Shown piece by piece: positions 13,902-16,359 of a DNA stretch of 64,000 nt. The translations under genes and the position numbers were made by a program. The DNA is from Candidatus Latescibacter sp. (lineage in GTDB: Bacteria; Latescibacterota; Latescibacteria; Latescibacterales; Latescibacteraceae), in contig JAUYCD010000109.1 of NCBI GenBank assembly GCA_030692375.1, positions 9,221 through 73,220 of the forward strand, read 5' to 3'. Below the pieces are notes generated by a model. That model worked only from the letters and a program-made list of their open reading frames with translations, searched no databases and had not been told where the DNA came from. Within the stretch, counting starts at the first letter, position 1. Each line of letters starts with the position of its first letter.

Positions 13902-15545
13902 ATGGCAAAAAATATTCTTTACAATTCAGATGCACGGGCCAAACTCAAATCAGGTGTAGATCAGATGGCCAATGCAGTCAAGGTAACCCTGGGACCGAAA
14001 GGCCGCAATGTGATTCTCGACAAGAAATTCGGCGCTCCCACGGTCACCAAGGACGGAGTCAGCGTGGCCAAGGAAATCGAGCTCAAGGATAAATATGAGA
14101 ACATAGGCGCCCAGATGCTCAAGGAAGTCGCCACAAAGACTTCCGATGTCGCAGGCGACGGTACCACCACTGCAATAGTGCTTGCCCAGGCAATTTTTGC
14201 CGAAGGTTTAAAAAATGTGACCGCAGGCTCGAATCCCATGGAACTGAAAAAAGGAATCGACCTCGCTGTCAGAGCGACAGTGGAGAATCTCGTCAAGATT
14301 TCCCGCCCGGTGTCCGGAAAAAAAGAAATCGCCCAGATCGGCACAATCTCTGCCAATAATGACAGTACTATCGGCGATCTGATCGCCCAGGCCATGGATA
14401 AGGTGGGCAAAGACGGCGTCATCACTGTGGAAGAAGCGAAGAGCATCGAGACCACACTCGAGGTGGTCGAGGGCATGCAGTTCGACCGCGGCTATATCTC
14501 CCCCTATTTTGCGACCAACCCCGACACGATGGAAGCGGTTCTGGAAGACGCCATGATCCTCATCCATGACAAGAAGGTTTCCGGAATGAAAGAGCTTCTT
14601 CCCATCCTGGAGAAGGTCAGTCAGATGGGCCTGAATCTCCTCATAATCTCCGAGGATATCGAGGGCGAGGCGCTGGCGACACTGGTGGTCAACAAGCTCC
14701 GCGGCGTGCTCCGGGTGGCGGCTGTCAAGGCTCCCGGTTACGGCGACCGTCGCAAAGCCATGCTCCAGGACATTGCCGTTCTCACCGGCGGCAAGGTCAT
14801 CTCCGATGAAATCGGGTTCAAGCTCGAGAATGTCCAGATTTCCGACCTGGGCAAAGCTGCCCGCATCACCATAGACAAAGACAACACCACCCTCGTCAAG
14901 GGCGGGGGCAACCCCGATGAAATCAAGGGCCGTATCAACCAGATTCGCAATCAGATCGAGGAAACAACCTCCGATTACGACCGTGAAAAGCTCCAGGAAC
15001 GTCTGGCCAAGCTCTCCGGCGGTGTGGCGATTATCAATGTGGGCGCCGCAACCGAAATCGAAATGAAGGAGAAGAAGGCCCGTGTCGAGGACGCTCTCCA
15101 TGCCACTCGCGCGGCGGTTGAGGAAGGCATCGTGGTCGGCGGCGGAGTCGCTCTTCTTCGCTCGATTGACGCTGTGAGCAAGGTCAAAGCCACAGGTGAT
15201 GTGGCGGTCGGCGTCGAGATCGTGAAGAAGGCGCTTCGTGAACCGGCCAAGCAGATTGCCAACAACGCCGGTGTCGAAGGCTCGATCGTGGTCATGAAGA
15301 TCCTTGAACTGACCGAGAATCAGGGATTCAACGCCGCCCTCGAGAAGTATGAAGACCTGATCGAGGCCGGTGTCATCGATCCCACGAAAGTGGTTCGCAC
15401 CGCTCTCGAGAATGCCGCTTCCATCTCCGCGCTCCTCCTCACCACAGAGGCGATAGTGGCGGAAATTCCGGAAGATAAGGAATCCTCAATGCCCGCCGGC
15501 GGCCCGCACGGCGGCGGAATGGGCGGAATGGGCGGAATGTACTAA
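13902..15545 (+). CDS. groEL: Chaperonin GroEL
   Basis: [37 protein letters not shown].. with a ..[11 protein letters not shown]-terminus. Confidence 0.97.
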
Positions 15546-15574
15546 AAAAGCAAAAGCAACAAGAAATACCGAAA

Positions 15575-15607
15575 GCGCCTGCAAAAAAAGCGGGCGCTTT
15601 TTTATTG
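15575..15607 (+). terminator. Rho-independent terminator after groEL
   Basis: agcgcctgcaaaaaaagcgggcgctttttt stem-loop plus T-run. Confidence 0.6.
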
Positions 15608-15679
15608 ATTTGCAATACGATATACGGTATATATTAAATCCATAAGAAATTTATACGGATGTTTTGAAAGGAATATTTC

Positions 15680-16009
15680 ATGAATGATCGGATACACTCA
15701 ATCCTGGCGATGTTCGAAGGTGATATTCCACCGTTGCTCCGTAATAATATCGTCAAAATACTCATATTTGGATCGTATGCCAGGGGCGAACCCACGAGTG
15801 AGTCCGACCTTGATATAGCGGTTATAGTAACAAAAAAAATCCCCAAAATGGTCCAGATGCTGGATGATTGCGCATACCGGGTTATGTGGGAATATGATTT
15901 CGATCCGGTTATATCGCTGAAAGTGTTCTCGGAAGATGAGTTTTCCGAAGCGGTGCGGTGCGGCTTTTCTTTTTATCGCAACGTTCTCGACAAGGGGATA
16001 CCGGTATGA
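15680..16009 (+). CDS. Minimal nucleotidyltransferase (MNT) inserted behind groEL
   Basis: ILIFGSYARGEPTSESDLDIAVIV motif. AT-rich cassette. A 30-aa overlapping ORF (16006-16098) may be the remnant of its HEPN partner. Confidence 0.65.
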   Translation: MNDRIHSILAMFEGDIPPLLRNNIVKILIFGSYARGEPTSESDLDIAVIVTKKIPKMVQMLDDCAYRVMWEYDFDPVISLKVFSEDEFSEAVRCGFSFYRNVLDKGIPV

Positions 16010-16117
16010 ATACAGTACAGGTGGCTGTTGCCTTCTGGATGAAAGCGATTATCTTTGTTGATGCTATGAGAGCGCTTCTTAATGACATTGATGAATGATA
16101 GAGAATCCTGACCTCCG

Positions 16118-16232
16118 GGCAGCGGCTCGCACGGCGGTGGAATGGGTGGAATAGGCAGAATGTACTAAAAAGCAAAAGCAACAAGATATCATGAACGCGC
16201 CTGCGAAAAAAAGCGGGCGCTTTTTTTATTGT
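16118..16232 (+). repeat. Diverged duplicate (about 88% identical) of the groEL 3' end plus terminator (15498-15607), flanking the MNT cassette on the right
   Basis: gggcagcggctcgcacggcggtggaatgggtggaataggcagaatgtactaaaaagcaaaagcaacaag..gcgcctgcgaaaaaaagcgggcgcttttttt compared with the groEL end. Confidence 0.8.
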
Positions 16233-16359
16233 CTTTACCTCGGAAAACTATTTTTCATATTTTCAAAAATTTCACTTGACAAACCAGCTTTTTCTTGTAT
16301 TTTACAAAGTAGATTTAAATATTAAATTTAAACATTCAATGAAATGCAGGTAATGAACG

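Follow-up and report, generated by a model that had tools for sequence, protein, structure and literature searches.

In the present study, we analyzed a window of 64,000 nucleotides (nt) from contig JAUYCD010000109.1 of Candidatus Latescibacter sp. (assembly GCA_030692375.1), in which a short cassette separates the chaperonin gene groEL from a blaI-like repressor gene. This object is a degenerate toxin-antitoxin cassette, made up of a gene for a minimal nucleotidyltransferase (MNT) and the remnant of a HEPN toxin gene, and it is bracketed by a direct repeat of the groEL 3' end and its terminator. It is fairly ordinary mobile DNA with an unusually clear insertion footprint. We propose, with moderate confidence, that the cassette entered through recombination anchored in groEL, that it was later exchanged or lost between lineages, and that its toxin gene decayed and left an orphan MNT.

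Duplication of the groEL 3' end and terminator

An earlier reading of the window, made from sequence only, described a duplication of 110 bp in which the groEL 3' end and terminator reappeared at about 88% identity downstream of the cassette. The duplication is real. Repeat and alignment tools paired 15474-15607 (134 nt) with 16097-16232 (136 nt), with 114 of 137 aligned columns identical (83%) and differences made up of 19 mismatches and single-base indels. Over the part that had been described (15498-15607), the measured identity was 86.7%, close to the earlier estimate. The length needed correction because the repeat begins approximately 24 nt further left, at 15474 and 16097, and the right copy thereby starts exactly at the stop codon of the HEPN remnant. 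In the 40 nt outside the repeat on each side, only approximately 48% of positions aligned, which is the level of chance; the boundaries are therefore sharp. The repeat has a period of 623 nt, and its longest exact blocks are 20 and 21 nt within an evenly diverged unit of approximately 135 nt. A 20-mer of the repeat was found at two sites only in the 64-kb window, one in each copy, and shuffled sequences gave an expectation of 0.

The left copy carries the working end of groEL, including a short tandem repeat, (GGCGGAATG)x3, within the coding tail. The right copy is a degenerate groEL coding tail, as the sequence-only reading had stated, and contains an in-frame stop when read in the groEL frame (Table 1). 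It differs from the left copy at 14 positions over 72 nt, and these are spread 4/4/6 across the codon positions; therefore, the right copy is without coding constraint and drifts freely. Each copy ends in a hairpin followed by a T-run, located at 15571-15601 on the left (-22.0 kcal/mol, z = -3.9) and at 16197-16220 on the right (-22.7 kcal/mol, z = -3.8). The right hairpin probably ends the cassette transcript. A weak match of the Rfam family BSR0602 (Brucella sRNA) at 15476-15609 was rejected because its 26 bits are below the gathering score of 191. The match happens to cover the left repeat unit, has no counterpart in the right copy, and seems to be caused by the GGM-coding repeat and the terminator. 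Further weak terminator-like Rfam matches were also rejected.

The arrangement was recovered independently. An assembly of SRR13727536 in Logan (contig L001) is 100% identical to the window over 15513-16360, so that one contig connects the left terminator with blaI across the cassette and the right copy. In a European Nucleotide Archive (ENA) contig from another sample (L003), the left junction is the same and runs from the groEL tail through the terminator and leader into the MNT gene at 91.6% nucleotide identity.

Table 1. Features of the groEL-blaI region (positions refer to the 64,000-nt window; aa, amino acids)
Feature	Position	Strand	Description
groEL (547 aa), intact	13902..15545	+	PF00118 (Cpn60), E = 7e-73; last 24 codons within the left repeat copy
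Left repeat copy	15474..15607	+	Last 24 groEL codons (working tail), 25-nt spacer, intrinsic terminator
Cassette leader	15608..15679	+	Approximately 90% conserved in L003; not similar to the sequence downstream of the right copy
MNT (109 aa), putative antitoxin, intact	15680..16009	+	PF18765, PF01909
HEPN toxin-gene remnant (30 aa)	16006..16098	+	Start overlaps the MNT stop (ATGA, 16006-16009)
Right repeat copy	16097..16232	+	Dead groEL tail DRES*PPGSGSHGGGMGGIGRMY* and terminator hairpin
Spacer and blaI-operon promoter region	16233..16359	+	TTGACA, 16 nt, TATTTT at 16276-16303
blaI-like repressor	16360..16734	+	PF03965, E = 3e-26
BlaR1/M56-family membrane protein	16734..19838	+	PF05569, E = 1e-18

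Genes of the cassette

Proteins of the MNT class have approximately 100-140 aa, a G[GS]-x9-13-D-x-[DE] motif, and matches to the NTP_transf_2/Polbeta families of Pfam. The first gene of the cassette encodes a protein of this kind, with a GS-x10-DxD motif (FGSYARGEPTSESDLDIAV) and scores of 39.2 bits for PF18765 (cut-off 26.9) and 33.4 bits for PF01909 (cut-off 21). It also matches the PADLOC candidate family PDC-S09 (E = 7e-16). The protein is similar to MntA, the antitoxin of type VII systems; however, against the NCBIfam equivalog of MntA (NF047752), it scored 34.4 bits, under the cut-off of 60, in a match limited to residues 23-54. In comparisons with L003, the ratio of non-synonymous to synonymous substitution rates was 0.37 for MNT and 0.09 for the adjacent groEL tail, from small counts (13 synonymous and 18 non-synonymous); this suggests that MNT is under relaxed yet still purifying selection. 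Visual inspection of the leader showed what may be a promoter (TTGATT, 17 nt, TATATA) as well as a short palindrome (ATATAC-G-GTATAT). A promoter scan called no site in the leader, and the promoter is one that we infer there.

The second open reading frame (ORF) of the cassette, of 30 aa, had been proposed as the remnant of a HEPN partner that might align with the N terminus of such proteins. It is a HEPN remnant, but what it retains is the C-terminal helix. In a pairwise BLASTP comparison, its residues 6-26 matched residues 104-124 of a HEPN protein of 130 aa, corresponding to the last helix, with 11 of 21 residues identical (52%, E = 3e-5). The reference protein is encoded at locus L002, at which a homologous MNT gene (61% identical to that of the window) is followed by an intact HEPN gene of the PF05168 family. 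Pfam and NCBIfam scans returned nothing for the 30-aa ORF, nor for a 46-aa ORF at the same site in a relative (see below), and the HEPN identity of the 30-aa ORF was assigned because of the pairwise match and the position of the ORF. L003 has the first ten bases of the ORF, ATGAATACAG, in common with the window and then continues differently. The 30-aa ORF thus appears to consist of Met-Asn-Thr fused in frame to the HEPN C-terminal helix and native stop. Judging from the 130-aa reference, approximately 100 HEPN codons would have been lost in frame, including any catalytic region. A HepT/DUF86 toxin with the R-x4-6-H motif was not found in the cassette, where the motif region is deleted, and the partners of related MNTs belong to PF05168.

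The assignment to the MNT/HEPN toxin-antitoxin type by the sequence-only reading agrees with the two Pfam matches of MNT and with the HEPN remnant at the ATGA overlap. As judged from these sequences, the cassette is presumably a remnant of approximately 0.5 kb of a two-gene MNT-HEPN module and not a complete module; the toxin gene appears to be dead, leaving an orphan antitoxin-like MNT with its own terminator. Toxin-antitoxin modules usually decay by this route, since the loss of the toxin is harmless and that of the antitoxin first is not. An identity as an integron gene cassette is not seriously supported: the only hairpin seen at the cassette ends is the duplicated groEL terminator, and the characterized neighbors are groEL and blaI/M56, with attC and intI not having been searched for.

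Filled and empty sites in relatives

The closest relatives are contigs of the JGI metagenome 3300075153, which were compared as gene maps only. One of these, P0004 (30,977 nt), has the gene order dnaK-groES-groEL-MNT-46aa-91aa(HEPN)-blaI-M56. Its MNT is 72% identical to that of the window, its 91-aa ORF has a weak HEPN match, and 1,081 nt separate the groEL stop from the blaI start, against 814 nt in the window with MNT and the 30-aa remnant. The HEPN gene of P0004 appears to be full length but split into the 46- and 91-aa ORFs. Including L003, the MNT of which is 85% identical, the cassette is present at the same site in at least two related lineages, and the distance from groEL to MNT is equally tight in both (125-134 nt).

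On another contig, P0038 (4,423 nt; GroEL 93% identical), no gene lies between groEL and blaI, and the spacer is 191 nt. Subtracting the repeat period from the spacer of the window (814 nt - 623 nt) gives the same 191 nt, as would be expected if the site contained one tail-and-terminator unit. The empty sites that the sequence-only reading had proposed to look for in related genomes thus exist, and the cassette is polymorphic, being present in L003 and P0004 and absent on P0038. A third contig, P0037 (19,428 nt), also encodes a GroEL 93% identical to that of the window and has no gene called in a spacer of 370 nt. This is neither the empty length of 191 nt nor a filled one, and is near the sum of the cassette flanks (366-395 nt). 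The BlaI of P0037 is only about 73-75% identical to that of the window.

A scan of GTDB with a lineage-specific GroEL segment found only Latescibacterota with GroEL 81-83% identical, in which dnaK-groES-groEL is followed by one terminator and unrelated downstream genes.

Age of the cassette and probable exchange of alleles

The GroEL of the filled contig P0004 (P0263, assigned via cluster membership) is 97.4% identical to that of the empty contig P0038, and each is approximately 92.5% identical to that of the window. A filled and an empty site are thus closest to each other in GroEL, and the presence or absence of the cassette therefore does not follow the GroEL tree. The two proteins differ at 3 positions in residues 1-406 and at 11 positions in residues 407-547. 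This unevenness has P = 0.0035 relative to the background spread among other pairs and 4e-5 under a uniform rate. The BlaI proteins of the two contigs are only 92.7% identical. These results suggest that homologous recombination swaps a segment from the 3' part of groEL to blaI that carries the filled or empty state. Recombination next to a conserved gene, which had been claimed on the basis of the repeat, is consistent with this mosaic GroEL.

The divergence of MNT increases with that of GroEL. MNT differs by 15% and GroEL (last 141 residues) by 3.5% at the amino acid level in L003, and the corresponding values in P0004 are 28% and 7.7% (full length). Therefore, the cassette has long resided at this site, and we regard it, from these divergences, as an old insertion polymorphism and not as a recent arrival in the lineage of the window. 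The divergence between the repeat copies had been taken as a sign that the flank came from a related genome. Synonymous divergence between the window and L003 is approximately 0.17-0.20, and the tail copies differ by approximately 0.22 per site. Hence, the difference of approximately 17% between the copies can stem from age and the neutral decay of the right copy, and would be explained by a duplication in situ of roughly the same age as the cassette; a foreign flank is possible, but is not required. If the split in P0004 is real, HEPN may have been inactivated twice independently, by a deletion in the window and by a frameshift or stop in P0004.

Origin of the repeat

The ends of the repeat coincide with those of the cassette, at the leader on one side and at the HEPN stop on the other, and the repeat is therefore best linked to the entry of the cassette. 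In the origin that we propose, the incoming DNA would have come from a relative and contained a groEL 3' end, terminator, MNT, and HEPN. It may have entered by homologous exchange on the groEL side and an illegitimate join of the HEPN stop to the resident groEL tail, namely, homology-facilitated illegitimate recombination. Alternatively, a circular fragment with the groEL tail and terminator may have been inserted by a Campbell-type single crossover within the tail. In either route, one copy of the tail and terminator would be incoming and the other resident, and the essential groEL would have been kept whole for this reason. Since only 489 nt lie between the copies, no recombinase is encoded in the cassette. 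Lineages would subsequently have exchanged the filled and empty states when homologous recombination replaced the segment that extends from the 3' part of groEL to blaI, or recombination of one repeat copy with the other may have removed the cassette. Without its toxin, the module would no longer act as an addiction or abortive-infection device, and MNT would either slowly decay or be retained for a minor role.

We considered whether the cassette is instead what later deletions left of an island or prophage that integrated at the groEL 3' end with its own integrase, with attL restoring groEL and attR being the displaced tail. The architecture fits this explanation, in that the groEL 3' end is restored in the left copy and the right copy is a displaced pseudo-tail. 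The groEL 3' end is a known attachment site of phage-inducible islands in staphylococci (PMC8125051), and the exact stretches of 20 and 21 nt could contain a core. However, we consider such an origin unlikely. No integrase or other island gene is present, MNT and the 30-aa ORF being all that the segment between the copies holds. The MNT leader directly follows the left terminator, and the spacing in L003 and P0004 is equally tight. Furthermore, the similarity is spread evenly over approximately 135 nt rather than concentrated in a short identical core, and there is no tRNA or tmRNA gene near the cassette. A scan of viral contigs with the MNT alignment gave motif-level matches only, with no close MNT relative, and thus no evidence for carriage of the cassette by phages. 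It is also quite improbable that tandem duplication or replication slippage doubled the tail and terminator independently, and that the cassette then landed between the copies or was itself duplicated before one copy was deleted. Tandem duplications are the commonest rearrangement in bacteria, the (GGCGGAATG)x3 repeat could favor slippage, and the divergence of the copies is compatible with an origin in situ. However, at least two independent events at exactly the same boundaries are needed. The repeat ends are tied to the cassette, since the HEPN stop marks the beginning of the right copy and the leader directly adjoins the end of the left one. Moreover, the spacer of the empty relative is exactly one unit, and a hicAB cassette in the same window (described below) shows a similar coupling with a flank duplication.

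A database entry for Candidatus Latescibacter sp., P0072, a GroEL of 542 aa that is 84% identical to that of the window, raises the possibility that a second groEL once lay downstream of the first and was deleted except for the right copy. Two groEL genes are therefore probable in this lineage or genome, and they may lie on one contig. However, P0072 has the tail PAGGHGHGMDDMY, which does not resemble the pseudo-tail, SHGGGMGGIGRMY, and a gene of this type was rejected as the source of the right copy. The pseudo-tail fits the tail of the window's own groEL in length and pattern, the non-coding spacer and terminator were duplicated as well, with exact blocks of 20 and 21 nt, and the homology has a sharp limit 72 nt ahead of the stop codon, where the HEPN stop lies. 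A relic of this kind is accordingly very unlikely. An assembly artefact, either a chimeric join or a mis-resolved repeat, has a negligible probability. The sequence derives from a metagenome-assembled genome, and L001 breaks inside the GGM-coding tandem repeat. However, copies that differ by approximately 17% are too dissimilar for an assembler to confuse or collapse. L001, which covers the region from the left terminator to blaI, and L003, which covers groEL to MNT, both argue against an artefact, as does the same gene order on P0004. The sequence-only reading had named such an artefact as a result that would overturn it, and the complete identity of the independent assembly over the two copies speaks against one.

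Several points weigh against the entry through groEL that we favor. A duplication in situ of identical copies followed by drift fits the divergence of the copies equally well, and the sequence cannot tell the mechanism. At the joint between the HEPN stop and the groEL tail, GATGAATGATAGAGAATCC faces GGAAGATAAGGAATCC, a similarity that is inseparable from the repeat itself without the donor sequence, and microhomology at this joint is only suggestive. The chief weakness lies in the empty allele and the allele with a full-length HEPN, which are known from gene maps and not from DNA; the sequence of the former and any right copy in the latter are accordingly unseen. The split HEPN in P0004 could be a sequencing error, and the mosaic structure of GroEL depends on 14 amino acid differences. 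Moreover, the distant Latescibacterota found in GTDB are uninformative on the ancestral state of the site.

Comparison with known systems

In the HepT/MntA system, the MNT protein neutralizes the HEPN RNase by adenylylation (Yao et al. 2020, PMC7641770). The present cassette resembles this system in that a small nucleotidyltransferase gene is directly upstream of, and overlaps, what appears to remain of a HEPN gene. The MNT of the window carries the GS-x10-DxD motif, and its homologue in L002 has an intact HEPN partner. In contrast, the partner family in the present case is PF05168 and not DUF86/HepT, and MNT scored 34 bits against the MntA cut-off of 60 bits. Furthermore, the toxin of the cassette is reduced to its last helix, and the module would not work as a toxin-antitoxin pair. 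By analogy with HepT/MntA, MNT-HEPN pairs of this subfamily may also show toxicity and neutralization.

Phage-inducible chromosomal islands of staphylococci are 10-15 kb in length. The last 18 bp of groEL overlap their attachment site, att (PMC8125051). As in these islands, the insert adjoins the very end of groEL without damage to the gene, the end of which recurs beyond the insert. However, the islands have genes for an integrase and an excisionase, and what they have in common with groEL is limited to the att core of 18 bp, whereas the groEL cassette of Latescibacter is 0.5 kb long, lacks a recombinase, and is flanked by a diverged repeat of 135 nt that includes the terminator. The element e14 and phage 21 at icd of Escherichia coli replace the last ~165 nt of their target with a diverged version of their own, such that a working end and a displaced pseudo-end frame the insert. 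They are the closest to the present case in the length and divergence of the repeat. However, their insertion is mediated by an integrase and the insert is a full prophage; such genes are absent between the copies in the window.

Arrays of orphan immunity genes of the type VI secretion system in Vibrio cholerae and orphan ends of Rhs and contact-dependent inhibition genes have been explained by homology-facilitated illegitimate recombination (PMC5361080). In these systems, a conserved upstream gene also serves as the homologous anchor, while the other end joins illegitimately. Displaced remnants lie downstream together with an orphaned protective gene, and close strains differ in their states, which simple homologous recombination also exchanges. 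The difference is that the incoming module replaces the effector end in these systems, whereas at groEL the cassette would have been added and the gene tail duplicated. The two cases are alike in that the mechanism is a model in both.

Similar cassettes and their implications

A hicAB toxin-antitoxin cassette in the same window (8044-8512; hicA 8044-8316 and hicB 8300-8512, both with Pfam matches) is bracketed by a direct repeat of 114 nt with 92% identity (7826-7939 and 8591-8704). The right copy forms the 5' end of the following gene, an 85-aa ORF at 8590-8847, and the left copy is a truncated duplicate in which ATG has changed to TTG. On L002, which stems from another genome, the block MNT-HEPN-DUF2442-DUF433 is bracketed by a direct repeat of 137-190 nt with 76-81% identity (5740-5928 and 7200-7388). 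This repeat combines a DUF433 gene end with the first part of a PF09720 (Unstab_antitox) gene, and its right copy is a truncated ORF of 49 aa. Three cassettes with long duplicates of flanking gene ends hint at a recurrent process.

We speculate that toxin-antitoxin cassettes of this lineage spread independently of recombinases and regularly duplicate 110-140 nt of the end of the target gene, which is kept intact even where it is essential, as with groEL; we consider this unlikely. One possible vehicle is a circularized cassette that still has part of its former flank attached and is inserted through a single crossover. No flank duplicates were found around the other MNT-like genes of the window (9403-9732 and 60391-60672). 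The former belongs to a different, intact pair located upstream of a URO-D gene and 6 kb from the decayed cassette, comprising MNT (109 aa, 9403-9732, minus strand) and HEPN (140 aa, 8994-9416, minus strand; PF05168, E = 2e-28). The same pair is present on P0037.

Chromosomal toxin-antitoxin modules are clearly mobile and have no mobility genes, and their movement is poorly documented. If recombinase-independent spread were true and general, it would provide a concrete footprint for this mobility, which has long been unclear. The groEL locus is a clean natural example, in which the footprint, a 135-nt duplicate of the tail and terminator of an essential gene, has been preserved, and filled and empty alleles occur in close relatives. 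It may also illustrate the expected path of decay, with the toxin lost first and the antitoxin orphaned. The locus can serve as a case study and as a template for searches, in which small cassettes flanked by a duplicated gene end would be sought; it does not represent a new kind of system.

Neighboring genes and other features of the window

The genes of this part of the window are, in order, URO-D, dnaK, groES, groEL, the cassette, the blaI-like repressor, and the BlaR1/M56-like protein. The groEL product exactly matches the NCBI entry "chaperonin GroEL [Candidatus Latescibacter sp.]". In relatives with BlaI 76-84% identical to that of the window (L004, L108, and L110), which were recovered by scanning metagenome contigs with BlaI and by looking up BlaI proteins of 81-84% identity, blaI lies behind genes with a CBM9 domain and not behind groEL; therefore, the groEL-blaI junction is specific to the near relatives of the window. 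This distribution points to a rearrangement that would have produced the junction in the sub-lineage of the window. Homology to the blaI loci that are unlinked to groEL begins at approximately 16262-16275, at the blaI promoter. These three loci were rejected as empty sites because blaI is unlinked to groEL and the homology starts only from the promoter. The terminator before the unlinked blaI was also rejected as the source of the right copy, with which it has no homology. A further contig (L107, BlaI 92% identical) begins 18 nt before blaI and hence carries no information on the spacer. Within 16734-22309, paralogous PD40/FlgD-Ig proteins are encoded downstream of the blaI-M56 operon, at 20084-22309.

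Elsewhere in the window, a tandem array of a 21-nt unit, ATCGAGCACTGAGCTTGTCGA, occupies 26272-26376 in about four to five copies. ARAGORN called a tRNA-like gene at 56990-57078 on the minus strand, with an anticodon of four bases (ggca) and no assigned type; this is either a false positive or an unusual tRNA. Two consecutive genes on the minus strand (1594-4395 and 4724-6253) each have at their 5' end one copy of a direct repeat of 63 nt with 95% identity (4412-4474 and 6195-6257), which may represent a shared leader or regulatory element.

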